A stretch of 54,907 nucleotides of DNA from a virus. Under the pieces are notes generated by a model that worked only from the letters and a program-made list of their open reading frames with translations, was not told the origin of the DNA and did no database searches. The stretch's first letter is position 1, and each line of letters starts with the position of its first letter. Both the position numbers and the translations under genes were made by a program. The stretch covers positions 1 through 54,907 of the IMG/VR virus record IMGVR_UViG_3300014208_000009. One strand, given 5' to 3'. Shown here one piece after another: positions 27,594 to 54,092 of the stretch.

Positions 27594-27596
27594 ATC

Positions 27597-31775: not shown

Positions 31776-32440
31776 TATTTCATATAACTAACCGAAATCA
31801 CATCATACTTATAGATCGGGATATTCAGTTGAACAAACTTGTTAACTAATGCCGGAGCCATAACGGTATATTGCCCTGCTGCAACGTGGCGAAGTTCAAC
31901 CCCGTTGACACTAACCGTAAAAGCGGTACTATCCTTGCAAACATTAGCAATCTGAACCGTATAATAACCACTCCCAGTAACAGTAATGGAATCTCCAACC
32001 GCTTCAAAGGTTTCCCCGATATACGCACCTGATCCGGTCGCAATGCCGTCTAACTTTGTCTTATCGGCTGCCGTTAAAACACCCGCATAGGAGGTCGTGG
32101 CTGCACCAATTTGCAATGCCTGATAACTCGCTTTTGTTGAATCAATAGCGATAGCGTAATTCACCGCTCCCCGTGTTCCAGAGTTTTGAACCGTTGTCCG
32201 GACAAACTCAATTTCAGCAGCCGCCCAAGCCGTATTAATGGTTCTTGTAGAAGCCACACCAGCAGCTTTTACATTCCAATCTGTCGAATCTGCTACGCAA
32301 AAGATCTTCGTTCCAGAAGGAAGATTCACATCAAACGTAGAGGTTCGAGTAGGAACCCGGACAATTTTGCCCGGAGTAGCCTGCGAATACCCTACAAGGG
32401 CAACGGCAAGCATGATCGAAAGAATAACTAACTTTTTCAT
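31775..32440 (-). CDS. Signal-peptide protein (221 aa from the ATG)
   Basis: The track start at 32446 is TTG; the ATG is at 32440. N-terminus MKKLVILSIMLAVALVGYSQA. The segment just after the signal peptide resembles that of the 1392-aa protein (KIVRVPTRTSTF vs IKRVPNSSTTF). Confidence 0.65.
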   Translation of the reverse strand: MKKLVILSIMLAVALVGYSQATPGKIVRVPTRTSTFDVNLPSGTKIFCVADSTDWNVKAAGVASTRTINTAWAAAEIEFVRTTVQNSGTRGAVNYAIAIDSTKASYQALQIGAATTSYAGVLTAADKTKLDGIATGSGAYIGETFEAVGDSITVTGSGYYTVQIANVCKDSTAFTVSVNGVELRHVAAGQYTVMAPALVNKFVQLNIPIYKYDVISVSYMK

Positions 32441-32447
32441 TTTCAAT

Positions 32448-40765: not shown

Positions 40766-40843
40766 ACGGGCTTAACATTATGGACTTTGAAATAAGTCCT
40801 TTCCACTTCACAATAGTATTCACCTAACTTGACAACGCCCCAC

Positions 40844-41658: not shown

Positions 41659-42110
41659 CTGAAGTAATTATTTAGTCCTGTGTATAAATCTTCTGTTATT
41701 ACGTCAAGTAACCATTCAAAATTAGCGTCATTCAGTCCTAAGATCGTTTCTCCCCAATGATGAATCAGTATGTCTTTCTTTTTATCTGTGGCATCTAAGC
41801 CTAACGAAAAACCCAAAGCATCGAACTTGACAAACATACTTTTCTGAAAATCGCCCGAAAAATTCAAATCAACATAATTCGTCTGGCGACCTATGGCTTT
41901 TCGCTTTTCAATCCATTTCTTACTCTTATAGCTTCCGTAAGGATTAAATTCGTCTGTCTTTAACTTTCCTTCTGAATCTTCACCTTTTAAAAGTTGCTCT
42001 TGGTTTCGTTTGATGATTTCTTTCGAGTGCCTTTTTATAGACGACCTGACCAAAGAATCTACTTTAGTTTCAATTCCTGCAAGTTTTCTATTTAGCTGAT
42101 CTATATTCAT
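41655..42110 (-). CDS. Head-tail joining / tail completion candidate (151 aa)
   Basis: ATGA-coupled on both sides. The call rests on position only. Confidence 0.4.
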   Translation of the reverse strand: MNIDQLNRKLAGIETKVDSLVRSSIKRHSKEIIKRNQEQLLKGEDSEGKLKTDEFNPYGSYKSKKWIEKRKAIGRQTNYVDLNFSGDFQKSMFVKFDALGFSLGLDATDKKKDILIHHWGETILGLNDANFEWLLDVITEDLYTGLNNYFR

Positions 42111-43270
42111 CTGCGTCCCATTGAAACAATTTTAATCCCGTCCTGTTCACATGGTAAACAAACATCATCCATTCGTGAAAAGTCGATCACAATATCCTCT
42201 ATTAGACCCCTTCTCTTCATTCCGGTATTATCAATCCATCCGTTTAAGATAGACCAGTACATATTTCGCTTTTCTTCAGCAAAGTCTCTAAACCGTTTGG
42301 CATCGGTCGTGTCGTTTAAGCGTTTAGAAGCAAGATAGTCGTCTAAAATTCGTATGGCTATCTTATATTGAAGTGCTTTGGCAAAGACCGAAAGGTTATC
42401 CAAAAGAAGGTCGGTAATGTCGCACGTTACGTTTATCTTGGCAAACATTCCCCTTGATTCATCACAATAGAACGAAGTCAGATCATCAATATCCGGTAAA
42501 ATATAGTCGCTTGCCGTGTAATTTAAAAATGAATTTTCAATCTCGATGGGCTGAATCCAGACATATTCTCCAAAGACCCTACGGGGGGCGTTATTACATC
42601 CGCAGTCAAAATCAAATTCAACGGCACTACCCGTTAATTGTCCGGTGACTACGTTATTAGGATCGTATTCGTAATATCCTAACAAATAAGACTGCCTTGT
42701 ACCCGATCCCCTGTATTTAACAACAAAGTCGCTTACATCGAGCCATTGAACACTTAAAGGCTTATTATAAACAAAGTTAAACGTCTTTATCGCATCAACT
42801 TGGGAAGTTTCGTACAGGTAGATTTTAAGGGTCTGCGAGGCGTTAAGTTGAAGTCCTATTTTTGTGATCTCGGCTTTTATATTATTTGAACTTCTTGGTG
42901 TGATAACCCAACCGACAAATCGTGCGTTCTTAGTCGCCAGGTCGGTCATATCGGCTACCCCGTTGCAGACATCGAAATTAGACAAAATGGTTCTTGTGCC
43001 TAACCGGGATTGTGCCTTGATAACAAATTCGTTGACAATATCCGCTATTTCGCTTTTCTGGACGATTTCAAGATAATCGCTTGCTGAAGTCTGATCTCCG
43101 CTTAGACCTTTGGTGATAATATCGAAGTCGATCCCCGGAAGGTCGTTCACATAGTAACCTGATTGGGAAACCTTCAGGTTATCAGGAAGATTTGTATAAA
43201 GGGCGTTGGCACTTTCACGCCATCCCACAAGGTCGCTTCCTGCTGTGATTATGTCATCAATGGTAAACAT
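42107..43270 (-). CDS. Virion structural protein (387 aa), possibly the major tail protein
   Basis: It is the first gene after the sugar island and has its own promoter-like motif. No family recognised. Confidence 0.4.
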   Translation of the reverse strand: MFTIDDIITAGSDLVGWRESANALYTNLPDNLKVSQSGYYVNDLPGIDFDIITKGLSGDQTSASDYLEIVQKSEIADIVNEFVIKAQSRLGTRTILSNFDVCNGVADMTDLATKNARFVGWVITPRSSNNIKAEITKIGLQLNASQTLKIYLYETSQVDAIKTFNFVYNKPLSVQWLDVSDFVVKYRGSGTRQSYLLGYYEYDPNNVVTGQLTGSAVEFDFDCGCNNAPRRVFGEYVWIQPIEIENSFLNYTASDYILPDIDDLTSFYCDESRGMFAKINVTCDITDLLLDNLSVFAKALQYKIAIRILDDYLASKRLNDTTDAKRFRDFAEEKRNMYWSILNGWIDNTGMKRRGLIEDIVIDFSRMDDVCLPCEQDGIKIVSMGRR

Positions 43271-43283
43271 ATCCTTTTTGTCC

Positions 43284-43315
43284 CAAATTTACGGGAAAGG
43301 ATATGCCCTTGCAAT
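43284..43315 (-). promoter_or_regulatory. Candidate promoter (ATTG-N20-TAAATTTG)
   Basis: Sits in the 49-nt gap between the island and ORF 42107..43270, 13 nt upstream of the ATG. Confidence 0.35.
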
Positions 43316-43319
43316 AGAC

Positions 43320-43943
43320 CTATTTCTGTGCTATGATACAATAGTCAATATCGGTTTCGATTGTCCGTATTAGAGAAAGATCAAAATAGGCCACAATTTG
43401 TTTTAAAAGAGCCAAATCAAAAACGTGGTGATGCAAACAACGGTTCTCAATGTTCTTTAGGCTTCGTTCCTTGAATTGTTCAAGGGTTCCGGCAGGCGGG
43501 TCAAGTGGAAGATCATGTAAAGAAAGAATTTCATCCAAATGTGTCAAATCGTCTTCGCCTATGTTATTTTCAAAATCCCGTATCAGGTGGGAAAATTCCG
43601 TAATCCCCCTTCGATGGTCGAAATTTGATTCTTTCTTCGGGGCGACAATCGTTATTAATCCGTTAGGTTTTAAGACCCCGATCCATTCCCTAACCGCCTT
43701 TAAAGGGTTAGCGATATGTTCTATGACGTTACTGGCAAGCACGAAGTCATACTTTTTTGTAAGAGAAAGATCCGTTGCTTCTTGGATGAAATTCTTACCG
43801 ACTACTTTTCCGTTTATAATATAGTCTTCTCCGTAATTGCCCCAAATAGTCTTATTTGAAAAGATCACGTTATCGCAACCTGATATTTCTAAGTAGTTCT
43901 GTTTAAAGTAGGCACTTGGCCCACCGATTTCAAGTCCGTACAT
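43320..43943 (-). CDS. Class I SAM-dependent methyltransferase (Methyltransf_11-like)
   Basis: The track start at 44003 is TTG; the ATG is at 43943. Contains GLEIGGPS (motif I) and YDFVLASNVIEHIANPLKAVREWIGVLKPNGLITIVAP. Confidence 0.75.
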   Translation of the reverse strand: MYGLEIGGPSAYFKQNYLEISGCDNVIFSNKTIWGNYGEDYIINGKVVGKNFIQEATDLSLTKKYDFVLASNVIEHIANPLKAVREWIGVLKPNGLITIVAPKKESNFDHRRGITEFSHLIRDFENNIGEDDLTHLDEILSLHDLPLDPPAGTLEQFKERSLKNIENRCLHHHVFDLALLKQIVAYFDLSLIRTIETDIDYCIIAQK

Positions 43944-44835
43944 TGGGTCTGTCTTGATCTGAATCTCCTTTAAATACAATGTAATACTCTGCTCTGCAAG
44001 CAAATTTTAGAGGTCTATGTTCCATAACGAAAGGTTCTGTCCAGTTGGGAATAATCAAATTATCAGGCTTTAAGTAAAATCCCATCTTTAAGAATTTTTC
44101 TTCAGGAATACCAAAGTTCACGCAATCAACATATTGGGCGTTTTCAAATCTCATTAAGGAATTAAAGGCAAACTGCACGTTTTCAGGTAGTTCACCAAAA
44201 ATGTCCACAATCCTAAGAATCGAAGTGCGCCCGTTATAGATTTTTCTAATTACAAACGCACAATCCCTGATTCCGTAGATCGAATAATCATAAAAAGGAT
44301 TCAAGCGATACCTTGCGTTAACATAAGTGTTTGATTTTGCAGGACATTGTGGTTTAACGTCAACCTCTTTAACTAAGGTGAGTTCTTCGCACTTTTCCCA
44401 TTTTGCCAGATAATCAACAAAAGGCAAAAAGTAATGATTAGCCACTCCGCTTACCCAACCTCTTTTTAAGTAAAGTTGTTCGATGGTGTCATTAATCCCT
44501 ATTGCCCCTATTGAACGTGGCTTAAATGCTTCTTCAATGAAATCAAGCAGTTTACTACCTAACCCTTTCGGGCAGTCCGGGGTTTTACACCAGATCGCCA
44601 ACCAAATATCCAATTCTTTAATGTCCTTATCGTACTGATTTGTAGGAATAAACCCTAAAGCGGTATAGATTTTCCCTTCTTCAATTCCAATTACGAAGTT
44701 ATATCCATACCCGTTGTGATGCTGGTAGTTCATCAAGTCTATGCTTTTTGAAAGGATATGATCTTTCTTCCAATAGTCGTTTAGAAACTGTTGAATTAAA
44801 GGAAGTTCGTTAAACCTAACAAGTCTTATTTCCAT
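43930..44835 (-). CDS. GNAT-like acyltransferase candidate (301 aa from the ATG)
   Basis: The track start at 44910 is TTG; the ATG (MEIRLVRFNE) is at 44835. Contains CPKGLGSKLLDFIEE, which resembles GNAT motif A. Confidence 0.45.
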   Translation of the reverse strand: MEIRLVRFNELPLIQQFLNDYWKKDHILSKSIDLMNYQHHNGYGYNFVIGIEEGKIYTALGFIPTNQYDKDIKELDIWLAIWCKTPDCPKGLGSKLLDFIEEAFKPRSIGAIGINDTIEQLYLKRGWVSGVANHYFLPFVDYLAKWEKCEELTLVKEVDVKPQCPAKSNTYVNARYRLNPFYDYSIYGIRDCAFVIRKIYNGRTSILRIVDIFGELPENVQFAFNSLMRFENAQYVDCVNFGIPEEKFLKMGFYLKPDNLIIPNWTEPFVMEHRPLKFACRAEYYIVFKGDSDQDRPNVRT

Positions 44836-44916
44836 GTTTCTTATTTTAGGACGTAAATCAACGTACCATAAACTATAACCAACAGAATAATGGTAACTAT
44901 CTTCATCCAAAGCGGA

Positions 44917-45630
44917 TTATAGTTTGATGTCGGCTCTTGGTCTTTCATATTTCCCATTTGTAAAAGAACTCGAAGTATAAGCCCCGATGATGCCTAATTG
45001 CCTTAAAATCTCTTTTGTGACAAAATTGTATCTTCCCATCGGGTAAGACGCAAACCGTACTTTTTCCTGGAACTGATGAAGATAGGCTAAATTCTCGATC
45101 CATTCATTGTATTGTTCGTGAGGTTTTAGTAAGTCCATTCTTCGTGGATGAGTAGCCGAATGAAGACCCAATTCATGTCCTTCATCTACTATTATTTGCG
45201 GGTCAATAAATTCAGGCATTTCGGTCTGGTCGCTGATCCAATCCATAATTTCGTCATGTACTTGTGGATCTGAAAAATCCCTGACCCAACGATAAGCCTT
45301 GTCGTTATCGTCATAAAAAGAATATTCAGACAGAAATTCTTTTGGCGGTTGGGGTTTGCTTCCGTATTTTCTCCAAAACTTGACCCAAAAATCAAATCCT
45401 AATCTTTCACGGATAACCCGGTGGCGTTCCATGTCGTTACGATTACAGATAAAGAATATCGCCTTCGACTGATACTTTTTTAAAAGCGGAAAGACGAGTT
45501 CCTGGCACTTTAATCCGTCATCAAAAGATAATTCTTCACCATTGAAAAGAGCCTTTTCTATCTTTTCCAATCCGACTGATCCTACGATTTCGGGATAGCC
45601 GTTGCCGTGTATGTAATGAATAGTTAACAT
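44917..45630 (-). CDS. Polysaccharide deacetylase (NodB/CE4-like)
   Basis: Contains LSFDDGL and GHELGLHSATHP (the HxxxH metal motif). Confidence 0.7.
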   Translation of the reverse strand: MLTIHYIHGNGYPEIVGSVGLEKIEKALFNGEELSFDDGLKCQELVFPLLKKYQSKAIFFICNRNDMERHRVIRERLGFDFWVKFWRKYGSKPQPPKEFLSEYSFYDDNDKAYRWVRDFSDPQVHDEIMDWISDQTEMPEFIDPQIIVDEGHELGLHSATHPRRMDLLKPHEQYNEWIENLAYLHQFQEKVRFASYPMGRYNFVTKEILRQLGIIGAYTSSSFTNGKYERPRADIKL

Positions 45631-46688
45631 ATTGATTCGTAAAATTGTGTTCTTCGTTTGTTCACGTTCATTAAATTAAACCGTTCATGCAGGTCTTCAT
45701 AGAGTTGATTTCCTAAATCTTCAGCTAAAGATTTATTGTCAACCAATCGTTTCATGTTCTTGAACCAGTCTGTCTTATTGTCACAAACTAAACAGTTTTT
45801 GTCAGTCGCCCATTTTTTGTAAGGCATCACGTTAGAAACAATTAGTCCTTTCTTAAAGAAAGCCGCTTCGACCATCTTTAGTTCAGATTTCATCGAATTG
45901 AACTTGGAATCAACTAAGGGTACAAGGCAAACATCAATCAGATTATAGAATTTCGTATAAGTATCTGAAGAGGCCAACCGATAGACCTTCAGTTTATCCA
46001 TTGTCTTGCCGTGTGAACACATAATATCGGCAAACTGATCGTAAAGGCTTCCGGGTTTTCCGTCATGCCCGAACAAATAAATATTCCAGTTCTGAGAAAC
46101 CGCATTAAGACGTTCAGGAGAAGTTTCCAATAACTTAATGTCTGGAAGGTGACAATGCCCACCAATCCAACCGAACCGCATCAAGTCGGATTTTTCAGGT
46201 TCATTGGCAAACTGATATAAAAAAGGATTGATAGCATTCTCGAAAACGTGGACTTTCCGATTGATTTTACGGATCTCGTCTGCCAGTAACTTAGTAGTGG
46301 TCGTAACATAGTCAAATTCCCGAAGAGCGTCGATCAATACTTTCGTTGTGCCGTTCTTTTTATACATCGAATACAAAAGATGATCCTGCGGTAACGCCCA
46401 GTAGTCGTCATAATCTATTATCGTCTTGACCCCAGCTTTCTTTAGCCTGTCAAGAACGGGCATGACCTGAATGAAATAACTCTTTGATACAAAGAGAATA
46501 TCCCCCAACAAATCTTGATAGTTGGTAGAATCTGTAAACACTACGTCATCCATTAATTCATGAGGCATCCTGATCCGATAAAGGCCCGTACCCCCGTAAG
46601 TTTTAGGAATCCAACAGACAATTTTCAAAGCGGTGTCCTTCCAAATTAAAGTTAATAAACGGGTTAATACTTGTAACAGAAACGCCAT
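45624..46688 (-). CDS. Glycosyltransferase, GT-B-like (354 aa)
   Basis: Contains KIVCWIPKTYGGTGLYR at the N-terminus and SELKMVEAAFFKKGLIVS (E-x7-E-like) near the C-terminus. An alternative TTG start at 46628 would reduce the 86-nt overlap. Confidence 0.55.
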   Translation of the reverse strand: MAFLLQVLTRLLTLIWKDTALKIVCWIPKTYGGTGLYRIRMPHELMDDVVFTDSTNYQDLLGDILFVSKSYFIQVMPVLDRLKKAGVKTIIDYDDYWALPQDHLLYSMYKKNGTTKVLIDALREFDYVTTTTKLLADEIRKINRKVHVFENAINPFLYQFANEPEKSDLMRFGWIGGHCHLPDIKLLETSPERLNAVSQNWNIYLFGHDGKPGSLYDQFADIMCSHGKTMDKLKVYRLASSDTYTKFYNLIDVCLVPLVDSKFNSMKSELKMVEAAFFKKGLIVSNVMPYKKWATDKNCLVCDNKTDWFKNMKRLVDNKSLAEDLGNQLYEDLHERFNLMNVNKRRTQFYESIC

Positions 46689-47244
46689 GCGCCCGAACTT
46701 CGTTTATGATAAGTTCAAGTTGTTCATTTACGGCAACCATGTGGTTTGTTGGAGTTGGGAACTTATACCCGCTATAATTGATTTCGTCATCAATCATTCC
46801 CCCGTCAACCCCCGAAAGAATAATATTTTTAGCCCCCAACAAATAAGCAAAATGGATAGCCGTTGTGATAATAGTCCCTCCGGCAATCAAGTAATTAGGG
46901 GTATCGAAAACGCTCAAGTCAATTTCGGTAAACTGTTGTTCTAAATGTTTATAGACATAATAATCACCATTAAAGATAGTAGAATGATGCGTTTTATTGA
47001 AAATACACATTTCCCTTTCGCTTGTAACGACAATCAATCCATTATTAAAAAAAGGTCGCAAAACAAAATAATGATGACTGATAATGTATTTACATTTTAC
47101 CCTCAAAGGAACGGTATTTACACCGATGACGATTTTATTATCCCAAAATCCATCAGGAATATAGTCAATAGATTTTCCCGAACCGATAACATAAATATCT
47201 TTCCCTTGTTCGGAACCACGCAATATTTCAATATCATTAGCCAT
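46603..47244 (-). CDS. MptE-like/DUF115 (Maf-type glycosyltransferase-like) protein, paralogue A
   Basis: Contains DIYVIGSGKS, IVIGVN, GGTIITTAIHFAYLLGAKNIILSGVDGG and SINPFINFNLEGHRF. Confidence 0.55.
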   Translation of the reverse strand: MANDIEILRGSEQGKDIYVIGSGKSIDYIPDGFWDNKIVIGVNTVPLRVKCKYIISHHYFVLRPFFNNGLIVVTSEREMCIFNKTHHSTIFNGDYYVYKHLEQQFTEIDLSVFDTPNYLIAGGTIITTAIHFAYLLGAKNIILSGVDGGMIDDEINYSGYKFPTPTNHMVAVNEQLELIINEVRAHGVSVTSINPFINFNLEGHRFENCLLDS

Positions 47245-47872
47245 TAAACGTATGCCCTTCTAAATTAAGGTTAATAAACGGATTCAAAGAATAAACACCT
47301 ATCTTCTTTCGGATATGATTACAGACAATCTTAACTTGTGGTTCAATGTCTGTGATATGTTGCGGATTGGTTGCGCCATAGGGATAATTCTTAACGCTTA
47401 TCTTTCCATCAATAGATCCCCCGTCTATTCCTGCAAGAATGATATTAGTCGCACCGATCTTATAGGCTAAGTGAATGGCTGAAGAAGTCGTACCGCCTAC
47501 GATTAAACTTTCAGGATCATCAAAGTCGCTTAAATCAATATCCTTATAACCTATGTTCCTATTATCATAGATATACAAGAAATTATTTTTATGCTTGAAC
47601 GTGCAGTATTTTCCGGTTAGTTTAACGTGCTTTCTTCCATAAACGCCCATTTCGTGTTCGGGACAGATACCTAAAACATGGTTGTCAATCATTTCCTGAA
47701 TAACGGTCGAATGATTTGAAATTCCATACGTTACAGGAAAAAGTTTATGGATATGATTAATCCCTATTACAATTTTCCCCTTGAAAAACGAAGGATGAAT
47801 AAAGTTTAAGGAACTGCCTGATCCTAAAACATAAACATCTTGGTTGTATTTTGGTAGTTCTGAAATGTTCAT
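47237..47872 (-). CDS. MptE-like/DUF115 protein, paralogue B
   Basis: Contains DVYVLGSGSS, IVIGIN, GGTTSSAIHLAYKIGATNIILAGIDGG and SLNPFINLNLEGHTF. It is collinear with paralogue A. Confidence 0.55.
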   Translation of the reverse strand: MNISELPKYNQDVYVLGSGSSLNFIHPSFFKGKIVIGINHIHKLFPVTYGISNHSTVIQEMIDNHVLGICPEHEMGVYGRKHVKLTGKYCTFKHKNNFLYIYDNRNIGYKDIDLSDFDDPESLIVGGTTSSAIHLAYKIGATNIILAGIDGGSIDGKISVKNYPYGATNPQHITDIEPQVKIVCNHIRKKIGVYSLNPFINLNLEGHTFNG

Positions 47873-48462
47873 GTCGTTTCAACGTCTAACCATTTGTAAC
47901 CAAGTATTTTACGGTACTTATTATAGTCGCCCCAATTACTTCCTAACTGATGCCAAGTATGTGAGTGATGAGCGAAGAAATTAACCGGAAGAAATAAATC
48001 TTCGTGGTATTCAAAGGCATCAATATCAATGGTGTAGTTCTTTAAACCCAAGTTCCGGGTCTGCATACACATATCTTCCACGTACAAATGAAAACTGTCA
48101 AAGGTCTTTTCATCGAACATCAACCCGTAATCGGTGTTAATGACTATACAACACGAATCAACCGTGATAACCTCCTGAATAAGTCCTTTTCTGCCCCAAA
48201 TCGTGCCTTTGTTGCTTCCGACAGCCCCTAATGCACCAAAGTCAGGATGGGCTTTAATCGTTCGCTCGATGGCTTCTTTCAAGCCGTTACTTGTTACGTC
48301 TGCATGGATAAAGCAAAGATACTGCTCGCTTGACTTTCTGATGTGCTTGTTATACACTCTGGCCGGAGAATCGGTCGAAGGATGAACCTTTACGTCTAAG
48401 TCAGACTTCCCTAAGTATTTTGAGTAAACCCCGTTGTCGATTGTAAAAAATCCTATATCCAT
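47869..48462 (-). CDS. GT-A-fold glycosyltransferase-like protein (197 aa)
   Basis: Contains YLCFIHADV (DxD-position variant) and FHLYVEDMCMQTRNLG (ED..R..G, as in GT2). Confidence 0.5.
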   Translation of the reverse strand: MDIGFFTIDNGVYSKYLGKSDLDVKVHPSTDSPARVYNKHIRKSSEQYLCFIHADVTSNGLKEAIERTIKAHPDFGALGAVGSNKGTIWGRKGLIQEVITVDSCCIVINTDYGLMFDEKTFDSFHLYVEDMCMQTRNLGLKNYTIDIDAFEYHEDLFLPVNFFAHHSHTWHQLGSNWGDYNKYRKILGYKWLDVETT

Positions 48463-48463
48463 A

Positions 48464-49084
48464 TTAAAATATCCTTAGTTGTGCTTTATGAGTTTCAAAT
48501 CTTTTCACGGCATCACGGTAATAATCAGGGTCTAACTCGATCCAGTCCAGATCAAAGCCCAAATTGTGACAGGCGATGCAGATTGAACCAGAACCGCCGT
48601 GCGTGTCAAGTATCTTGTCGCCGGGTTTGGCGTAGTTTTCCAATATCCATTGGTATAATTCTAATGGTTTTTGAGTTGGATGGATTTTATCTTCACTATT
48701 ATTTCCACTCCATTTCGTAACCATTTTTAATGCCCGATTAAAAGACGTATAGGCAAGTTCTCCATCTGAAAAATCACCACCTATTCTTTTATCCCAAAAT
48801 ATCCATCCCATTGAAGGGGGTAAAAATTCAGTAAAATAGTTTGCCCCGAAAATAATTTGGTTTTTCGATACCCGTACAAGTTGATCGAAATATTCCTTAG
48901 TCGGTCTATCGTTATCCCAATTTTTAGACTTATGCACAACGGTATAGTTATGCTTTTTCCTTGTTCGGCAATGCCCATTTTCACCAATCCCATACGGCGG
49001 ATCAACAATAGCCAGATCCCAAAACTTGTCCGGATTGTCAGCCATAAAGTCCATGCAGTCTATGTTATATAGGTTTATGTCCAT
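48464..49084 (-). CDS. DNA methyltransferase, beta-class N6-adenine/N4-cytosine (DPPY)
   Basis: Contains AIVDPPYGIG (motif IV) followed by HPTQKPLELYQWIL and ILDTHGGSGS (motif I). Confidence 0.85.
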   Translation of the reverse strand: MDINLYNIDCMDFMADNPDKFWDLAIVDPPYGIGENGHCRTRKKHNYTVVHKSKNWDNDRPTKEYFDQLVRVSKNQIIFGANYFTEFLPPSMGWIFWDKRIGGDFSDGELAYTSFNRALKMVTKWSGNNSEDKIHPTQKPLELYQWILENYAKPGDKILDTHGGSGSICIACHNLGFDLDWIELDPDYYRDAVKRFETHKAQLRIF

Positions 49085-49728
49085 TTTTCTTTTGCTTTTT
49101 GGTATTTTTCTTCTTGCCCTGAAGTTAGTTCTTTTAAATCACTTGATTTTAGTAAGGTAGTCGAAGGGTTATGTTTGACCTTGCAACTCGCCACAAGAGC
49201 GTGCTTGATTTTAAAATGCTTCAAAATGTCTGCGTAAAGATCGTCTGATTTCCAAAATCGTACTTCTTCAGGGAATCCCCCTATGCGTTCCATTATTCCC
49301 CGGTGAAGAATAAGACACCAACCGCAAAGTTCATATCCTATTCGATAACCTTCTACTACGCCTTTCATTCCTTCGTGGAATTTCCAACCCGGATTCAGAC
49401 AACTCAAAGACTTATAGCCGTGATCTATACAGTCCGCCCAGTTTCCCAAAAATTCCACGTCGTTATTTGAAAAACAAACCCAATCGGCTGAAGTCAATTT
49501 AAAACCTTTGTTTAAGGATTGATTGTAATTGAAAGGCTTGTCCTGAAGAATCGTAGTTGCACCGTGATATTCGATAGGATATTCTCCTACCACAATAACC
49601 CGTCCTAAACAGGTCTTATGAAAGGAATCAATACAATTCTTCGTCATACTGATTAATTCCTTTGTCCGTCCACTACTGACAATAACAAGGTCAATCAAAT
49701 GGCCGGAATCCCAACGGATCATTTCCAT
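49075..49728 (-). CDS. Family-2 glycosyltransferase
   Basis: Contains LVIVSSGR, FNYNQSLNKG, VCFSNNDVEF, GWCLILHRGIMERIGGFPE and SDDLYADIL. Confidence 0.7.
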   Translation of the reverse strand: MEMIRWDSGHLIDLVIVSSGRTKELISMTKNCIDSFHKTCLGRVIVVGEYPIEYHGATTILQDKPFNYNQSLNKGFKLTSADWVCFSNNDVEFLGNWADCIDHGYKSLSCLNPGWKFHEGMKGVVEGYRIGYELCGWCLILHRGIMERIGGFPEEVRFWKSDDLYADILKHFKIKHALVASCKVKHNPSTTLLKSSDLKELTSGQEEKYQKAKEKWT

Positions 49729-50365
49729 TTCTAAACAAGATTTCGTTTTGTGCGATTAGTTTATCCTTTTCTTTTTGGCTTATCGAAGAACCCGGTTGCC
49801 AATCAAACCCGTCATACGAACCGAGTGCATCGAAAGACCAAATATAGTCTTGAACATTTTTAGGCGTGATCCAGGGATAAGGGATTAAGCCGTTACGGTA
49901 AATCCGCATGGTATATTCAACGTGTTCAAACCCATAGAACCCAAACTTGGCGTTCATGCCCCCTACTCTTTTAAGGACGGTTTGGTCGATCATCATGCAA
50001 CACCCTAAAGCACCGTTCCAGTAAGCGTTCTTTCCTTCGTATTTCTTTACATATTGCGGAGGTCGTGCAGCATGGGCGTAGTGATGTTCGCCTTCGTAGA
50101 TTTCCCACCACTTATCTTTAATAGGAAAACAGTCGTCGTCAAAGAGGAAGATTTTTTTGTAATCTTTTAGAAGTGAGATACACTTGTTTTTACTCTTTGC
50201 GACCCCTAACCTTTTTTCATTCCTGATACAACGTGACGAACACCCACCTTTTGAATGATCGTCAATAACGACAATATCCCCGCCAAACTTATCAAACTGC
50301 GATAGGGTAAACTCTAACAGTTTAGGTCGGTTGTAGGTTGTAATCCCAATGCCAAAGTCATTCAT
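49691..50365 (-). CDS. Family-2 glycosyltransferase
   Basis: Contains GIGITTYNRPKLLEFTL, VVIDDHS, IFLFDDDCF, CCMMIDQTVLKRVGGMN and FEHVEYTMRIYRNG. Confidence 0.75.
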   Translation of the reverse strand: MNDFGIGITTYNRPKLLEFTLSQFDKFGGDIVVIDDHSKGGCSSRCIRNEKRLGVAKSKNKCISLLKDYKKIFLFDDDCFPIKDKWWEIYEGEHHYAHAARPPQYVKKYEGKNAYWNGALGCCMMIDQTVLKRVGGMNAKFGFYGFEHVEYTMRIYRNGLIPYPWITPKNVQDYIWSFDALGSYDGFDWQPGSSISQKEKDKLIAQNEILFRNGNDPLGFRPFD

Positions 50366-50720
50366 TAGGTTCTCCTGTCAATGCTTTATTAATTGCTGAT
50401 ATGGCATTTCTTTGCGCAATTTGCCAATTCATTGTACTATGGGGGTCTTCTCCCTTTCCGCTTGCCATAAATAACAAATCTTTCAATGCGCTTAATAATT
50501 CAGGTGCGGCAGCAATTAGCCTCACATTAGCCTCCGTTTCCGATAAGTCCTGTAATGCCGTTTGGACATCTTCATCAAATTCGTATTGAGCGAATACCAG
50601 ACAAATATCAACATCAATACCCATTCTTTCACAGGTTACTACGTTTTCGTCACCATTGCCAAGGTAAACGATGTTGCTTCCATTACAAAACCATGGTGCT
50701 GGTGTATGTTTTGTTTCCAT
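50358..50720 (-). CDS. Hypothetical protein (120 aa) with an HTPAPW N-terminus and an AAPELLSALKDLL segment
   Basis: I recognise this motif pair from small phage proteins of unknown function. Confidence 0.55.
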   Translation of the reverse strand: METKHTPAPWFCNGSNIVYLGNGDENVVTCERMGIDVDICLVFAQYEFDEDVQTALQDLSETEANVRLIAAAPELLSALKDLLFMASGKGEDPHSTMNWQIAQRNAISAINKALTGEPNE

Positions 50721-50730
50721 TTATTATTTA

Positions 50731-50958
50731 TTATTTAACAAGATCATCGAGTGCTAATTCAAATAATATCCATGCAAATTCTTTGTTTTTCAGTTGGCTT
50801 TTATAAAAGCCAATGACAATCTCAAGATCAAGTTCTTCGCTTTTTAGTATTACTGGATAGTTTGGCATTCCGCACATTTGTCCTCCCCTTTCTGGAGGTC
50901 TTTTACTATCCCATTTTACGTTTTTCTTAATCTGATCCTTAATGTCCTTTATGTCCAT
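50731..50958 (-). CDS. Hypothetical protein (75 aa)
   Basis: ATG start on the coding strand. Confidence 0.5.
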   Translation of the reverse strand: MDIKDIKDQIKKNVKWDSKRPPERGGQMCGMPNYPVILKSEELDLEIVIGFYKSQLKNKEFAWILFELALDDLVK

Positions 50959-51091
50959 AGTCTTGTTCTATTTTCTCTTGATTTACTTGTTCGCATAGTA
51001 TTTGAAAATCATCTGTTCCGCACAGTTCGCAAGGATAACCTTTCGGATAAGGACATTCATCGCATTCTGATTGTTGCCTATTTGTGTTCAT
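50939..51091 (-). CDS. Micro-ORF, zinc-ribbon peptide (50 aa)
   Basis: My own translation: MNTNRQQSECDECPYPKGYPCELCGTDDFQILCEQ... with CxxC-x7-CxxC. Confidence 0.4.
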   Translation of the reverse strand: MNTNRQQSECDECPYPKGYPCELCGTDDFQILCEQVNQEKIEQDYGHKGH

Positions 51092-51123
51092 TGGCTAATT
51101 CCTTTTTTTATGTCCGTAAACTA

Positions 51124-51423
51124 CTAAGACCCGTTGTCTATGGTAGGTTGTGATCCCGATTGCGAAATCCATGATTCTTGCTGTATAATATCAAATTCCT
51201 GTTTATAAACTCTTCTGTAATCCGGGTGTAATCCTTGTTCAAGTTGTTCTAACTGGTGCGGTAAATGTTCAAATTTCGCCCATAGTTCATATCTTGGCGT
51301 ACAAACCGGAGAACCGTTAGGAAAGAACCGATACCCTGCCGTCCGTTGCATAAAGATCGCAAACCGTGAAAAAGGCTCATCTAAAGCGTACCGAAGAAGT
51401 TTATTATACTCGGCATCAGTCAT
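51124..51423 (-). CDS. Hypothetical protein (99 aa from the ATG)
   Basis: The track start at 51456 is GTG. The ATG (MTDAEYNKLL) at 51423 overlaps the MTase stop region by 8 nt. Confidence 0.5.
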   Translation of the reverse strand: MTDAEYNKLLRYALDEPFSRFAIFMQRTAGYRFFPNGSPVCTPRYELWAKFEHLPHQLEQLEQGLHPDYRRVYKQEFDIIQQESWISQSGSQPTIDNGS

Positions 51424-52072
51424 TTTTGACGCTGTTGGAAGGCTCGGTATTGTCACCTTTGAAGATAATGATTAGGTTATGGTAGAAGTGAATACTGAAA
51501 ATCCATTCATCAAAATAAGTTGGAATATATCCTTTTCGCCTGACTTCTTTATAATTTAACCCATCGGTCAGGGCTTTGAAATAGTCCGTAGCCTTTATAG
51601 TTGGGCTTAGTTCGGGAAAGTAAGACGTTTGAGTATCTTCGATTACATAAGTCCCGCCTTCATTTAACTGGTGAAACATGACCTCAAAAGTATGGATCTG
51701 ATCTTCGCTTCGATGGCTACCATCGTCAAAAATCAGGTCAAACCAACCTAACGAGTGCATGAAGGCATCATCCGTCTGACTTCCATGCCTGAAAGAATAT
51801 CCCGTATCTTTTACGTTCTTTTTGACAATATCCGTAACAACGATTTCCGAATTAGGAAAGTAGTCACGAAATGTTCTCGCTGATTCACCCCCAAGATTCG
51901 GCTCGTTGTAGCCGTTTTTTTCAGACCAACCCCCATAACCTATCTCTAAGATGCGAAGTTGATCTTTACGTCTGAACTGGAAATACTGATTATAGATAGG
52001 GGTATAATGGTGACAACCCTCTTTAAACTTGTCGGTTCCATATTTAATCGCTAACTGACTTAGCTTATCCAT
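51416..52072 (-). CDS. Class I SAM-dependent methyltransferase (sugar/O-methyltransferase-like)
   Basis: Contains AIKYGTDKFKEGCHHYTPIYNQYF then ILEIGYGGW and FDLIFDDGSH. I associate this pattern with methyltransferases found in glycan gene clusters. Confidence 0.65.
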   Translation of the reverse strand: MDKLSQLAIKYGTDKFKEGCHHYTPIYNQYFQFRRKDQLRILEIGYGGWSEKNGYNEPNLGGESARTFRDYFPNSEIVVTDIVKKNVKDTGYSFRHGSQTDDAFMHSLGWFDLIFDDGSHRSEDQIHTFEVMFHQLNEGGTYVIEDTQTSYFPELSPTIKATDYFKALTDGLNYKEVRRKGYIPTYFDEWIFSIHFYHNLIIIFKGDNTEPSNSVKND

Positions 52073-52076
52073 GAAC

Positions 52077-52084
52077 CAAATATA
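52077..52084 (-). promoter_or_regulatory. -7 box TATATTTG, 4 nt upstream of the island's first ATG
   Basis: The minus strand reads TTGTTATATTTGGTTCATG. The -33 is weak (TTCG). If used, the mRNA would have almost no leader. Confidence 0.3.
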
Positions 52085-52086
52085 AC

Positions 52087-52116
52087 AAAAAAAAGGAAAA
52101 ACCCGAAGATTTCTCC
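52087..52116 (-). terminator. Rho-independent terminator after the major capsid gene
   Basis: The minus strand reads GGAGAAAUC-UUCG-GGUUUUUCC (9-bp stem with two G-U pairs and a UUCG tetraloop) followed by 8 U. Confidence 0.8.
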
Positions 52117-52140
52117 TTTTTTCTTGAAAAAAGTTAACAA

Positions 52141-53157
52141 TTAAGTCGTTTTCAACCCAAATTTGAAGATCGGGGTTTCGGTTGCGGTCGTGATCGGGGC
52201 TTTCACCAGACCAAAATCACAAGTGATTTCCCAAACGGTTAGTAAGTCCTGAACCTCGCCTCCAAGTGAAACAGACGTATCGCAGGACGATTTCTTAAAC
52301 ACCGACCAAGTGATCGGCAATCCAAATAAGTCACCCATTGTAGTCCAGACATTCTCTCCCGATACAAGACCTTCCACGTTAAGCGGAGGAATCCAGTCAA
52401 GCAGGGCAACCGAGTACGGATTAAATACATAACTGTTAATCAAGTAATCGGAAGCAGTGGTAACGTAGTTCGATTCGTGGAAAAGAATGTTACCATACTG
52501 ATAAGCCTGGTTGGCGGAGTTACCCGGCCCCTGTGCCAGTTGTTCCATCATGACGGCCCCGGCAGCGATATTCTGGATGGCATCCAGTTCACCCCTGTAA
52601 AGGTTTTCACGCATGACGGTCTGCATATAATTATAATAACGGGTCTTGTCGGCAACAGCAACATCGTAAATGTCATTGGTTCCGTCCCAAGTACCCATCC
52701 ATGCAGAACCGTTGTTTACGCCTGTTTTGTTGGCTTCAAGATACGCCACGATAGCGGTTTCAAGGGCTTCGTGTGCGTTCAGCATCCCACCGTACAGGTC
52801 ATTGGCGAAAGCCTGCTGTGCGGAATAGTAGTTGTTCTGGAACAGCTTTTTGGATTCATATACGGTAAACCCAATCGTTGACCAGGTTATCGTTGCTGCG
52901 GAAGAATCCCCGAAGGCGGCAGTCGGGCTACAACTTCTTGCGGAAATTGTGGACTGCGTGGTTTTGTCCAGATAACGGACGGTCGTGGTTCTTTGTGGCG
53001 ACTTTCTGATGTCCGAAAGATTGGGAATGGAATAATCCCTGTATTTCAGGAAAGTTTCTGTCGCCCCGAAAAAACCCGGACGCATCTCATGTGCATTGAA
53101 GCGGTCGGTAATAATACCAACGGCATCAAGTAAAATCGAAGGTTGATAATTAGCCAT
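52141..53157 (-). CDS. Major capsid protein candidate (338 aa)
   Basis: It follows the scaffold-like gene after a 2-nt gap. Its size is typical for a capsid protein and a strong terminator follows it. No motif-level proof. Confidence 0.6.
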   Translation of the reverse strand: MANYQPSILLDAVGIITDRFNAHEMRPGFFGATETFLKYRDYSIPNLSDIRKSPQRTTTVRYLDKTTQSTISARSCSPTAAFGDSSAATITWSTIGFTVYESKKLFQNNYYSAQQAFANDLYGGMLNAHEALETAIVAYLEANKTGVNNGSAWMGTWDGTNDIYDVAVADKTRYYNYMQTVMRENLYRGELDAIQNIAAGAVMMEQLAQGPGNSANQAYQYGNILFHESNYVTTASDYLINSYVFNPYSVALLDWIPPLNVEGLVSGENVWTTMGDLFGLPITWSVFKKSSCDTSVSLGGEVQDLLTVWEITCDFGLVKAPITTATETPIFKFGLKTT

Positions 53158-53159
53158 TG

Positions 53160-53999: not shown

Positions 54000-54092
54000 T
54001 TTATCTTTTTAGTGATTGGTGGCTTTGTTTTTGGCGGTAACTTAACTGGTCGCCAAGTACGATCACCCGTCCTACGAACATAGGCTTCGTAC

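Follow-up and report, generated by a model that had tools for sequence, protein, structure and literature searches.

A probably ancestral, position-conserved and content-variable glycan-assembly and glycan-tailoring locus in the late morphogenesis operon of a phage lineage that probably infects Bacteroidota

The window analysed here, the whole stretch of 54,907 nucleotides (IMG/VR virus record IMGVR_UViG_3300014208_000009), carries 15 ORFs between the major capsid gene and an adaptor-like gene (positions 43320-52072), all co-directional on the minus strand, as are all features described below. This confirms the block of about 15 genes between capsid and tail genes recognized in an earlier sequence-only reading, and the public gene calls of three independent assemblies of the same phage agree (14-15 genes in the locus). 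The upstream anchor is the major capsid protein (338 aa, 52141..53157; phrog_7231, 1e-49; 30% identity to the Pan5 MCP), whose homologues (n=26) are 39-96% identical. The downstream anchor, here and in all relatives, is the adaptor-like structural protein (387 aa, 42107..43270; phrog_8189, 4e-58), with 51-94% identity in the relatives and weak, colinear similarity to the Pan5 'adaptor' and also to MD05 gp77; a tail-completion-like gene and then the tape-measure gene follow. The terminator and promoter-like motifs proposed earlier as boundaries were both found. Directly 3' of the capsid stop codon is an intrinsic-terminator-like hairpin (52124-52087; 17 pairs, UUCG loop, T-run), also present right behind the capsid stop codon in 7/8 relatives. 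Downstream of the hairpin lies the promoter-like box TATATTTG (52077..52084), 4 nt before the first ATG of the island, and a second box, TAAATTTG (43284..43291), is positioned 16 nt upstream of the adaptor-like gene. The first box fits the Bacteroidota -7 consensus TAnnTTTG, and a similar box comes after the hairpin in three relatives (L014, L019 and L099); genome-wide this motif is not enriched (60 found vs 53.8 +/- 7 expected). The base composition of the locus shows no break. No transmembrane segment was detected in any island protein, all of which are predicted to be soluble, and the block encodes no sugar-nucleotide synthesis, lipid-carrier initiation or flippase genes, which bears out the previously noted absence of nucleotide-sugar synthesis.

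Ten of the 15 ORFs encode carbohydrate or tailoring enzymes, and their identities support the view of the block as a coherent set of glycan-building and glycan-tailoring functions; nearly all earlier motif calls held when examined by Pfam, PHROG, AF2/Foldseek and motif inspection. The GT4-like GT-B (45624..46628; phrog_7162, 2e-46) is about 334 aa long from a TTG at 46628, probably its true start, while the ORF itself reaches to 46688. Its family profile matches PglA best among PDB entries (6.6e-7), together with other GT4 enzymes, and 29/50 family members match Glyco_trans_1_4; the closest solved relatives, PglA and WbaZ, act on lipid-linked acceptors. The GT-B assignment thus stands, but not the E-x7-E motif cited for it, as the sole literal copy (residues 323-331) is off the canonical GT4 position. 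Two GT2 enzymes had been called at 49075..50365, and both are retained. GT2a (224 aa, 49691..50365) has a DDD motif, scores 23.8 bits against Glyco_transf_7C (cut-off 23) and matches phrog_2456 (3e-39), and is homologous to a Phapecoctavirus glycosyltransferase (Mt1B1_P17 gp103, E 1e-11), while GT2b (217 aa, 49075..49728) matches phrog_22332 (6e-27) and, weakly, Glycos_transf_2 (3.5e-3). The GT-A-like protein of 197 aa at 47869..48462 proved to be a Glyco_tranf_2_5 member (2e-10, 41.3 bits, cut-off 27).

Next to these genes lie two DUF115/MptE-like proteins. Protein a (211 aa, 47237..47872) falls below the Pfam cut-off, has its counterpart (89% identity) in L014, the nearest relative, and is a putative CMP-ulosonic-acid transferase. 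Protein b (213 aa, 46603..47244) reaches 27 bits against PF01973, also below cut-off, while most of its homologues carry that domain; its AF2 model (pLDDT 92) has a sialyltransferase-like fold, with CstII and CstI sialyltransferases as the top Foldseek matches. The family of the proposed tandem paralogues is upheld, but the pair is not a recent tandem duplication, because copies a and b share only about 40% identity; b is closer to the alleles in L016 and L019. NeuB and/or a CMP-sugar synthetase (CTP_transf_3) is encoded within 10 kb in 19/34 long viral loci bearing a DUF115 homologue, and the combination of DUF115, GT-B and Glyco_tranf_2_5 recurs in unrelated phages.

The tailoring enzymes were also identified much as first read. 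The NodB-type (CE4) deacetylase (237 aa, 44917..45630; Polysacc_deac_1, 1e-13) has FDDG and HSATH motifs and neither a signal peptide nor a hydrophobic segment. The GNAT-like acyltransferase (301 aa, 43930..44835) has no Pfam match, and its AF2 model (pLDDT 93) is a tandem GNAT, with Eis, NMT, VipF and 2ozg as Foldseek matches (~1e-7); its bacterial homologues are found in polysaccharide loci, clustered with UDP-GlcNAc 2-epimerase, UDP-ManNAc dehydrogenase, CMP-sugar synthetase and deacetylase genes. Of the two SAM methyltransferases, the class I enzyme at 43320..43943 (207 aa) scores above cut-off for Methyltransf_23 (1.4e-8) and Methyltransf_11 (1.6e-7), and the one at 51416..52072 (218 aa; phrog_21658, 5e-18) is Methyltransf_24-like at 25 bits, just under cut-off. 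The remaining ORFs are of other kinds. The DPPY N6/N4 DNA methyltransferase (206 aa, 48464..49084; N6_N4_Mtase 1e-16; phrog_67 8e-41; DPPY at residue 28) is what it had been taken for, but its membership of the pathway is not supported: no other variant has it, and it is a window-specific insertion, probably unrelated to glycan synthesis. A window-specific 120-aa protein (50358..50720; phrog_1273 / PF27050 Phage_P22_Y8K6) of unknown function probably also stands outside the sugar pathway. Functions are likewise unknown for a 75-aa ORF found in the window only (50731..50958), a 50-aa ORF called in the public assemblies (50939..51091) and a conserved small protein of about 99 aa (51124..51423), which was detected by tblastn in 7/9 variants (6/9 in the family clustering) and usually opens the locus.

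Comparison was made across nine variants of the locus (the window, L008, L011, L014, L016, L017, L019, L021 and L099; L020 and L021 represent one lineage, counted as L021). All nine relatives recovered (capsid identity 47-73%) have glycan genes at the capsid/adaptor junction, and the island genes have diverged (43-61% identity) at much the same pace as the capsid and adaptor genes (47-70%). The 'moron-like' interruption proposed earlier is thus not upheld, given the same junction in every relative, the parallel divergence and the even composition. In the more distant Pan5 and MD05, which have a related capsid protein, a cement-protein gene instead occupies the position of the island. The pan-locus comprises 25 families: 15 are singletons, and the GT-B alone is shared by all variants. 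In L016, which has the minimal version of the locus, the GT-B gene begins 3 nt after the capsid stop codon. GT2a occurs in 7/9 variants, GT2b and the Glyco_tranf_2_5 gene in 6/9 each, and the deacetylase and the variable methyltransferase at 51416..52072 in 4/9 each, while the methyltransferase at 43320..43943 was found in the window, L014 and L020. Deacetylase and tandem GNAT co-occur in the window, L011 and L020/L021, and in L017 a formyltransferase-like gene behind the deacetylase takes the place of the tandem GNAT. The locus of L014 also includes a TROVE/Ro60-like gene. The ends are conserved, with the small protein and GT2a on one side and the GT-B on the other, and the middle is variable; close relatives differ by whole-gene indels. 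Surface-glycan loci typically show such turnover, with singletons and whole-gene indels. The block is best explained as a hypervariable and ancestral locus for glycan assembly and tailoring within the late morphogenesis operon of a lineage that probably infects Bacteroidota, and its position has been kept while its content has not.

Five phage proteins elsewhere in the window have predicted, textbook Bacteroidota-type signal peptides with Gln right behind the predicted cleavage site. Four are encoded by consecutive tail-module genes (25836..34052; 534, 223, 1392 and 585 aa), each with a Sec signal peptide at the N-terminus and Gln behind it, and the fifth is a 159-aa protein (7431..7910; ..NAVNS|QS). 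Three of the five are tail-fibre-like: the 1392- and 534-aa proteins share a minor-tail-protein domain and a third protein matches a virion structural protein; a Laminin_G_3 lectin domain was also noted in the four-gene module. The Bacteroidota-type O-glycosylation sequon, D-(S/T)-(A/I/L/V/M/T), is enriched 4- to 8-fold in the 1392-, 534-, 223- and 159-aa proteins, the four most enriched of the genome (observed vs expected 39 vs 9.9 and 14 vs 4.0, each reached in 0/2000 shuffles, 4 vs 0.9, and 3 vs 0.4 for the 159-aa protein), and none occurs in the capsid, scaffold, tape-measure or tube proteins. The signal peptide is kept in a homologue from an unrelated phage (L100), and L102, a relative that has the island, carries one at the corresponding position. 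Judged from these features, the four tail-module proteins are candidate exported glycan acceptors.

Our preferred reading, tentative and of slightly less than even probability, is a late, cytoplasmic glycosylation of virion proteins, the putative acceptors, with host nucleotide sugars. The island would be expressed late in infection, either by read-through or from the promoter-like box that follows the capsid terminator, and host UDP- and CMP-sugar pools would feed its enzymes. The universal GT4-like GT-B and up to three GT-A enzymes would build a short oligosaccharide, to which the two sialyltransferase-fold DUF115 proteins may add one or two ulosonic/nonulosonic acid residues. The NodB deacetylase would remove an N-acetyl group, the tandem GNAT put on another acyl group in its place, and the two SAM methyltransferases add methyl groups to the glycan. 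As acceptors we favour the capsid or capsid-proximal proteins of the phage itself, which would be modified directly in the cytoplasm, either prior to assembly or in its course. In mycobacteriophages, subunits of the capsid and of the tail tube do bear glycans made by phage glycosyltransferases (PMC12619734, PMC11256854). Neither a Ser/Thr-rich tail nor any other acceptor feature can be recognised in the capsid protein studied here, and the position of the island is by itself weak evidence, because in L025-type contigs, Phapecoctavirus and L101 the homologous GT-B, Glyco_tranf_2_5 and DUF115 sets adjoin genes for replication, not structural ones. The lipid-linked acceptors of PglA and WbaZ and the polysaccharide-locus homologues of the GNAT also count against virion glycosylation, as do the exported sequon-rich proteins, which point to a periplasmic route.

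Because of these signal peptides and the sequon enrichment, an LFG-like reprogramming of the general O-glycan of the host has to be considered, unlikely as it is. The substrate of the island enzymes would be a glycan carried on undecaprenyl phosphate at the cytoplasmic face, and a host flippase and transferase would place the phage-specified product on non-cytoplasmic proteins at sequon sites, mainly on the Sec-exported 1392-, 534-, 223- and 159-aa proteins, most of them fibre-like, which would either first encounter the particle at lysis or work at the cell surface. The retention of the signal peptide in L100 and L102 and the PglA match of the GT-B are in line with this. The Bacteroidota system glycosylates such exported proteins, and its LFG locus, with methyl and acetyl decorations, resembles the island in having conserved terminal glycosyltransferases and a variable middle (PMC12871550); in Tannerella the locus holds glycosyltransferases, three methyltransferases and a Pse/Leg transferase (PMC6120980). 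However, no wzx flippase, initiating transferase or ligase is encoded in any of the nine variants, the cassette adjoins the capsid gene about 9 kb away from the fibre genes, the sequon excess lies partly within internal repeats and could be structural, and the host glycan would reach exported proteins without any phage enzyme. No tailed phage is known to us to build Sec-exported fibres into its particle. A rather improbable alternative is that the enzymes remodel host envelope polysaccharide (LPS, capsule or host-protein O-glycan), with no glycan on the particle, either masking receptors so that progeny are not wasted on debris or shutting out other phages. Bacterial polysaccharide loci contain these same enzyme classes, the GNAT and GT-B relationships described above agree with such a role, and PHROG places these glycosyltransferases in the class 'moron, auxiliary metabolic gene and host takeover'. 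Yet a late position behind the capsid gene would leave only a short time to remodel the surface, Gtr- or Oac-type proteins embedded in the membrane are absent, the strict vertical linkage to the capsid-adaptor junction is unexpected for a host-takeover module, and the scanned ORFs include neither an integrase nor a lysogeny gene, in agreement with the apparently non-temperate nature noted earlier.

A mere collection of unrelated accessory genes (morons) that is rich in carbohydrate-enzyme folds by chance, with no coherent pathway behind it, is very improbable. At least four window-specific, non-sugar-looking ORFs (the DNA methyltransferase and the 120-, 75- and 50-aa ORFs) and the TROVE/Ro60-like gene of L014 would fit such a collection, but not the predominance of carbohydrate and tailoring enzymes, a core kept with co-varying pairs across nine variants, or the recurrence of the DUF115-centred set in unrelated phages. 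The least probable alternative, already rated as less likely in the sequence-only reading, is that the glycosyltransferases act on a modified base in phage DNA and thereby evade restriction. Phage glycosyltransferases glycosylate DNA in T-even and many other phages (PMC13326640; bioRxiv 10.1101/2023.12.21.572611), the L025-type homologous cluster adjoins a family B DNA polymerase and a dUTPase/dCTP-deaminase-like gene, and a DNA methyltransferase lies within the island. The latter is, however, of the N6/N4 type and missing from all relatives, and known DNA glycosylation pathways require a hydroxylated base (PMC13326640). Phapecoctavirus-group phages, which belong to a genus with homologous GT2a and GT-B genes, are moreover exceptionally restriction-sensitive (PMC8594841). 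Among the ORFs scanned (mostly >= 118 aa), no thymidylate-synthase homologue, dCMP hydroxymethylase, TET/JBP dioxygenase, C5-methyltransferase or DNA polymerase was found. To our knowledge, no deacetylase, acyltransferase or sialyltransferase-like enzyme has been described as acting on DNA.

A phage-made glycan coat on the phage's own particle proteins, as in the preferred reading of virion glycosylation, has so far been documented only in mycobacteriophages. The exported, sequon-rich, fibre-like proteins would represent a second route to a glycan on the fibres, one not considered in the earlier interpretation. If virion proteins are indeed the acceptors, turnover of the enzyme set would provide each sub-lineage with a different surface glycan.

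The window is a complete, circularly permuted genome of an uncultured siphophage of about 54.9 kb, since its two ends cut a portal-like gene (1-551 and 54379-54907) whose product is given as about 600-604 aa by other assemblies. Three public samples each yielded an independent assembly of this phage, and its source samples include JGI 3300037810, ENA ERZ27249449 and SRR18595301. Nearly all of its genes lie on the minus strand. The late region opens with the large terminase (2437-4890, 817 aa, with a LAGLIDADG-type insert), followed by the portal-like gene, a scaffold-like gene and the major capsid protein (52141-53157; phrog_7231, 30% identical to that of phage Pan5). Directly after the capsid gene in transcription order comes the glycan island (52072 down to 43320), and downstream of it an adaptor-like protein of 387 aa (42107-43270), a tail-completion-like protein, two small proteins and the tape measure. 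Gene calls confirm 15 co-directional ORFs in the island, in agreement with the sequence-only reading, which had placed about 15 such genes between capsid and tail genes. Residues 8-358 and 703-817 of the terminase align to the contiguous ~440-aa terminases of relatives, and the ~345-aa insert between them is probably, given its LAGLIDADG_3 domain, an intein with a homing endonuclease. Two further methylases are encoded outside the island, another DNA methyltransferase at 15621-16190 (phrog_757, 5e-72) and one for RNA, of SpoU type, at 7950-8384. No tRNA genes were found in the window, and no integrase match among the scanned ORFs (mostly of at least 118 aa). Positions 40000-54907 had no megablast match among 50,697 phage records, and a capsid-protein pattern search of IMG/VR returned one spurious short match only. 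A proteobacterial host, as implied by a MAG bin, was not trusted; a scan of genome contigs gave only the same phage contig inside that bin.

Profile searches and two structure predictions support nearly all of the enzyme assignments that had been made from motifs, and instead of most ORFs being reassigned to non-carbohydrate functions, ten enzymes of a carbohydrate or tailoring kind were upheld. Four or five are glycosyltransferases, none with a transmembrane segment, and no hydrophobic segment was found in any island protein. GT2a (49691-50365) is of GT-A type with a DDD motif and matches Glyco_transf_7C above the cut-off and phrog_2456 at 3e-39; GT2b (49075-49728) is a weaker GT2 (phrog_22332, 6e-27), and a GT-A-like protein (47869-48462) matches Glyco_tranf_2_5 above the cut-off. 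The GT-B protein (45624-46628, probably starting at a TTG at 46628) matches phrog_7162 at 2e-46, and the window protein alone has no Pfam match. Its family comprises 5147 representative clusters at E <= 1e-3; Glyco_trans_1_4 is found in 29 of 50 members, and a profile of 50 family sequences retrieves PglA from the PDB at 6.6e-7, besides MshA, WbaZ and TreT, a profile similarity of the GT4 type. The E-x7-E motif ascribed to this protein did not hold, as the sole literal occurrence (residues 323-331) lies off the canonical GT4 C-terminal-domain site; a conserved block, K-S-x-L-K-x-x-E-A, is found at residues 267-275.

The two DUF115 proteins (47237-47872 and 46603-47244) score 18.5 and 27 bits, respectively, against a PF01973 gathering cut-off of 34.6, and most of 55 homologues carry PF01973 in precomputed annotation. 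An AF2 model (pLDDT 92) has a sialyltransferase-like nucleotide-sugar-binding fold, the best Foldseek matches in the PDB being the Campylobacter sialyltransferases CstII and CstI (probability 0.93-1.0, TM ~0.5, at modest E-values of 1e-3 to 3e-2), followed by ST8SiaIII. A recent tandem duplication was rejected, as the copies are only ~40% identical and the second is nearer to the alleles of two relatives (L016 and L019). Searching isolated phages by tblastn with the DUF115 protein gave no match. The deacetylase (44917-45630) is a clear CE4/NodB enzyme (Polysacc_deac_1, 51.8 bits against a cut-off of 23.1) with the metal-binding motifs FDDG and H-S-A-T-H and no signal peptide. The ORF at 43930-44835 has no Pfam match; its AF2 model (pLDDT 93) is a tandem GNAT like Eis, N-myristoyltransferase (NMT) and VipF (~1e-7, TM ~0.5), and the protein weakly matches the AAC(2') CoA-binding motif. 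Single-sequence and shallow-profile PDB searches with the GNAT-like, DUF115 and GT-B proteins yielded chance or very weak matches only. Profile searches also support the two class-I SAM methyltransferases and the DPPY DNA methyltransferase (48464-49084) recognized earlier, the last being rejected as a pathway member because, among the variants, only the window has it. Four small ORFs are without assigned function. A conserved protein of 99 aa was also considered as a Ser/Thr-tailed acceptor or a cement homologue; the aligned sequences have a helical core and a tail that varies, a tblastn search gave no match at the Pan5 locus, including the cement gene, and no function was assigned.

The signals described at the island boundaries are all present. 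The capsid stop codon is followed by a hairpin of 17 pairs, which has a UUCG loop and a T-run, and then by TATATTTG, while a promoter-like motif, TAAATTTG, lies upstream of the adaptor-like gene. The hairpin is at the same place in seven of eight relatives, in three of which a TAnnTTTG box follows, as in the window. This box was not enriched as a genome-wide promoter signal, and sigma-70 and terminator scans were at chance level overall. Terminators after the capsid gene are common in phages, and the hairpin fits a lower, late expression of the island. In two relatives, L008 (10173-11085) and L017 (5313-6224), the glycan locus is separated from the capsid gene by two or three small genes on the opposite strand.

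The capsid protein has 26 metagenomic homologues (39-96% identity), and for a set of lineages with a capsid identity of 47-73% the neighbouring sequence, or failing that a gene table, could be recovered, which with the window gives nine locus variants. A synteny comparison with relatives lacking the island had been proposed, but glycan genes occupy the junction between capsid and adaptor-like gene in all nine. Compared with two of the relatives (L008 and L011), identity is 47-48% for GT-B, 43-46% for GT2a and 43-51% for GT2b, and 47-53% for the capsid and 54-56% for the adaptor-like protein; the island genes have diverged as much as the flanking structural genes. No compositional (GC) break was found at the island. 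The layout had been called moron-like, but the promoter- and terminator-like flanks are its only moron trait. The presence in every variant, the structural-gene-like divergence and the even composition together indicate that the block is an ancestral part of the morphogenesis module and not a recently inserted moron. Pan5 and Rhodobacteraceae phage MD05, which are distant and have a related capsid, carry a cement-protein gene at this junction and no glycan genes.

The content of the locus is fluid. Its 70 ORFs in the nine variants cluster into 25 families, 15 of them singletons. GT-B is present in all nine, GT2a and DUF115 in seven each, the 99-aa protein in seven by tblastn (six by clustering), and GT2b and the GT-A-like gene in six each. 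The minimal variant (L016) retains GT-B only, which begins 3 nt past the capsid stop codon; the DUF115 gene of this variant has been relocated upstream of the portal gene. Between the window and its nearest relative (L014) the differences are whole-gene indels: of the two, only the window has the DNA methyltransferase, a second DUF115 gene, the deacetylase-GNAT pair and two small ORFs, and only L014 has a TROVE/Ro60-like gene. Conserved ends around a variable middle are the pattern of bacterial surface-glycan loci. The TROVE/Ro60-like protein (474 aa, L014 8152-9576) has a vWA domain and is encoded between island and adaptor-like gene. Between these two phages the scaffold-like protein is 91%, the adaptor-like protein 94% and the island proteins 88-96% identical, while the capsid protein (52141-53157 against L014 1007-2023) is only 73% identical, a divergence far beyond that of its neighbours which suggests that the capsid gene has exchanged alleles or evolved faster.

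Some clues to the chemistry come from gene neighbourhoods. IMG/VR holds 283 stretches encoding relatives of the DUF115 proteins, and 19 of 34 such loci (of at least 13 kb, outside the lineage) have a homologue of NeuB and/or a CMP-sugar cytidylyltransferase within 10 kb. This linkage, together with the sialyltransferase-like fold of the model, makes the DUF115 proteins probable transferases of CMP-ulosonic or CMP-nonulosonic acids. As no NeuB or CMP-sugar synthetase was found in the window phage, the donor would have to come from the host. Unrelated phages with a family B DNA polymerase (L025 6658-14588, IMG/VR 3300021963_006641, and likewise L023, L024, L031, L036, L037 and L040) carry a run of a GT-B homologue, a dUTPase/dCTP-deaminase-like gene, Glyco_tranf_2_5, DUF115, CMP-sugar cytidylyltransferase, GT8, NeuB and FkbM methyltransferase genes, by gene content a putative phage-encoded cluster for nonulosonic-acid synthesis and transfer adjoining replication genes. 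The deacetylase and tandem GNAT occur together in the window, in L011 and in the L020/L021 lineage, and in L017 a formyltransferase-like gene (Formyl_trans_N, weak, 6e-4) follows the deacetylase instead of the GNAT. This partnership suggests that an N-acetyl group may be removed and the position then re-acylated. A bacterial homologue of the GNAT-like protein belongs to a polysaccharide cluster that also encodes an AMP-ligase, a short-chain dehydrogenase, UDP-GlcNAc 2-epimerase, UDP-ManNAc dehydrogenase, CMP-sugar synthetase and a deacetylase. A different phage contig from a source sample of the window phage (L101 6320-20918; ENA ERZ27249449 k141_809280, 51.7 kb) bears glycan genes over at least 11 kb, not adjoining structural genes, among them a GNAT-like homologue, MptE-like, a DegT fragment, GT2, a GT2+GT1 fusion, a PglD-like acetyltransferase, a GT11 fucosyltransferase and DUF268.

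Elsewhere in the genome, five proteins begin with a textbook Sec signal peptide, and in each the first residue past the predicted cleavage site is Gln, a feature known as the 'Q-rule' of Bacteroidota. Four of the genes are consecutive in the distal tail module (25836-34052). They encode proteins of 534 aa (signal end ...SALYG-QT, the hyphen marking the predicted cut; minor-tail-protein domain), 223 aa (...LVGYS-QA), 1392 aa (...IWVYS-QT; minor-tail-protein domain) and 585 aa (...ASFG-QQ; ConA-like lectin domain and a virion structural protein match); the fifth protein, of 159 aa, is encoded at 7431-7910. By domain, three of the five (1392, 534 and 585 aa) are tail-fibre-like. The 585-aa protein has no sequon of the Bacteroidota general O-glycosylation type, D-(S/T)-(A/I/L/V/M/T), and the other four are the most sequon-enriched proteins of the genome, with a 4- to 8-fold excess: 39 sequons against 9.9 expected in the 1392-aa and 14 against 4.0 in the 534-aa protein (each reached in 0 of 2000 shuffles), 3 against 0.4 in the 159-aa (p = 0.005) and 4 against 0.9 in the 223-aa protein (p = 0.006). 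Capsid, scaffold, tape-measure and tube proteins contain none. A homologue from an otherwise unrelated phage (L100) keeps the signal peptide, and a relative that has the island (L102) shows one in the corresponding place. Independently of the role of the island, signal peptides and sequons are good evidence that the host is a member of the Bacteroidota and that some phage proteins are made to be O-glycosylated.

As to what the island enzymes act on, direct glycosylation of virion proteins is the most likely mechanism, although we give it somewhat less than an even chance. Soluble phage enzymes would here put the glycan on the phage's own virion proteins, and the strict linkage to the capsid gene, the solubility of the enzymes and the absence of a flippase or initiating transferase from all nine variants count in its favour. 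Maf-type enzymes show, as a precedent, that a structural protein can be glycosylated in the cytoplasm. A second precedent comes from mycobacteriophages, whose capsid and tail-tube subunits carry phage-made glycans (PMC12619734). A caveat is that homologous enzyme sets adjoin replication genes in other phages, and the capsid protein shows no recognisable acceptor tail or obvious acceptor feature. If the glycosyltransferases acted on a modified base in the phage DNA, a hydroxylated base would be expected, from which all known DNA glycosylation routes begin (PMC13326640). However, no thymidylate-synthase homologue, hydroxymethylase, TET/JBP, C5-methyltransferase or DNA polymerase was found by Pfam and PHROG among the scanned ORFs (mostly of at least 118 aa, smaller ones in part), which agrees with the earlier reading that hypermodification is less likely and a hydroxymethylase missing. 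The island DNA methyltransferase, moreover, is of N6/N4 type and unique to the window, and phages of the Phapecoctavirus group, the genus with GT2a and GT-B homologues side by side, are exceptionally restriction-sensitive (PMC8594841), so that DNA as the acceptor is very improbable. Classical serotype conversion is countered by the lack of membrane proteins in the island and of an integrase among the scanned ORFs, as well as by the location in a late structural operon; neither a membrane-embedded GtrA, GtrB, Gtr(type) or acyltransferase-3 protein among the island proteins nor lysogeny genes among the scanned ORFs were found.

The sequon-rich exported proteins, combined with the architecture of the locus, bring in another route, in which the island could be a flippase-less cassette resembling LFG, the B. 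fragilis locus for general protein O-glycosylation. The cassette would rewrite the outer part of a lipid-linked glycan, and in the periplasm of a Bacteroidota host the general O-glycosylation system would place it on the Sec-exported, fibre-like phage proteins. Non-cytoplasmic proteins of just this kind are what the Bacteroidota system glycosylates, its LFG locus keeps the terminal glycosyltransferases and varies in the middle, and its O-glycans are commonly methylated and acetylated (PMC12871550); the Tannerella locus contains methyltransferases and a Pse/Leg transferase (PMC6120980). Similarly, the phage offers dozens of sequon sites on signal-peptide proteins, and its locus combines conserved terminal glycosyltransferases (GT-B in nine, GT2a in seven of the variants), a variable middle with 15 singleton families, and methyl and acyl tailoring. 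On the other hand, no wzx flippase or polytopic membrane protein is encoded in any of the nine variants, the island lies ~9 kb from the fibre genes, and part of the sequon excess is located in internal repeats. The oligosaccharyltransferase and ligase of the host system are themselves still unknown (PMC12871550). Overall we regard this route as unlikely, though well above the DNA alternative. If true, a virus would have taken over a general protein-glycosylation pathway of its bacterial host, components of the particle or factors associated with it would mature outside the cytoplasm, and host envelope proteins would incidentally also bear a glycan that the phage specifies and that varies by lineage.

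Among known systems, mycobacteriophage virion glycosylation comes closest, and to our knowledge particle glycosylation of phages has been demonstrated only there; Freeman and colleagues (Cell Host Microbe 31:1216, 2023) reportedly saw few signs of it among phages at large. In the Che8-type system, soluble phage glycosyltransferases likewise act in the cytoplasm on the phage's own structural proteins, using host sugar nucleotides, while the present case is known from genes alone. The Che8-type phages infect Actinobacteria instead of, as is likely here, Bacteroidota. They have about two glycosyltransferase genes (PMC11256854), compared to ten enzymes in the window, which also has the DUF115, NodB and tandem-GNAT components that they lack, and they are not known to have a hypervariable locus with a fixed place at the capsid-adaptor junction. 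The B. fragilis LFG locus and the 27-kb Tannerella forsythia cluster share with the island several glycosyltransferases, conserved ends, a variable middle and methyltransferases (PMC12871550, PMC6120980), and the latter has a nonulosonic-acid transferase, as the DUF115 proteins putatively are (PMC6120980). LFG acceptors are signal-peptide proteins with sequon sites, which the window phage encodes in excess. Unlike LFG, with which it is compared by architecture and not by gene orthology, the phage locus is viral, adjoins the capsid gene and lacks wzx and nonulosonic-acid synthesis genes.

The hypervariable Maf/DUF115 flagellin islands of Campylobacter, Helicobacter and Aeromonas offer a link to CMP-nonulosonic acids and the cytoplasmic O-glycosylation of a self-assembling protein. 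Maf proteins are multi-domain, of ~600 aa, with acceptor-binding domains, whereas the window proteins (211 and 213 aa) are single domains without the extra Maf domains, and the window phage lacks the genes for donor synthesis. Giant viruses have DUF115-fold proteins as well. Chloroviruses and Mimiviridae encode sugar methyltransferases and make clade-specific glycans. For glycosylation of their capsids and fibrils they have their own cytoplasmic glycosyltransferases, independent of host machinery (PMC5408694, PMC9614988); in contrast to the present phage they are eukaryotic giant viruses, often with sugar-nucleotide synthesis, and the gene families are unrelated except for fold classes. In phage DNA glycosylation (T-even glucosylation; arabinosyl-5hoC in RB69/DLP3, PMC13326640; MT/TET/GT, bioRxiv 10.1101/2023.12.21.572611), phage glycosyltransferases also use host or phage sugar nucleotides, but the hydroxylated base requires a thymidylate-synthase homologue or a methyltransferase with TET, and neither was found in the window. 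The four-glycosyltransferase cluster of Phapecoctavirus (Mt1B1_P17 gp102-105; L007 7717-10861) has adjacent homologues of GT2a (E 1e-11) and GT-B (~29% identity over 92% of the length), but lies near endolysin and DNA polymerase genes, outside the structural module, and lacks DUF115, deacetylase, GNAT and methyltransferase genes; no published function for it was found in the literature. Literature searches on DUF115 in phages or nonulosonic acids on phages returned nothing relevant, nor was a description of any comparable locus found in the literature searched, as the sequence-only reading had supposed. What sets the island apart is the host phylum, its size, its enzyme repertoire (the sialyltransferase-fold DUF115 proteins, NodB and tandem GNAT) and a fixed position with hypervariable content; that it is something categorically new we consider doubtful.

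A phage lineage most likely infecting Bacteroidota thus keeps a glycan-building locus joined to its capsid gene, with an enzyme set that turns over as those of bacterial O-antigen or capsule loci do. The signal-peptide and sequon data make the use of Bacteroidota general O-glycosylation by a phage directly testable. If the product is on the virion, phage surfaces can share the diversifying selection of the bacterial type, for which shielding, adhesion to polysaccharide matrices or mucus, and escape from lectin-like or antibody recognition are candidates. Sialic-acid-like sugars may then decorate phages, and the 'auxiliary' glycosyltransferases of metagenomic phages may often be structural accessories.
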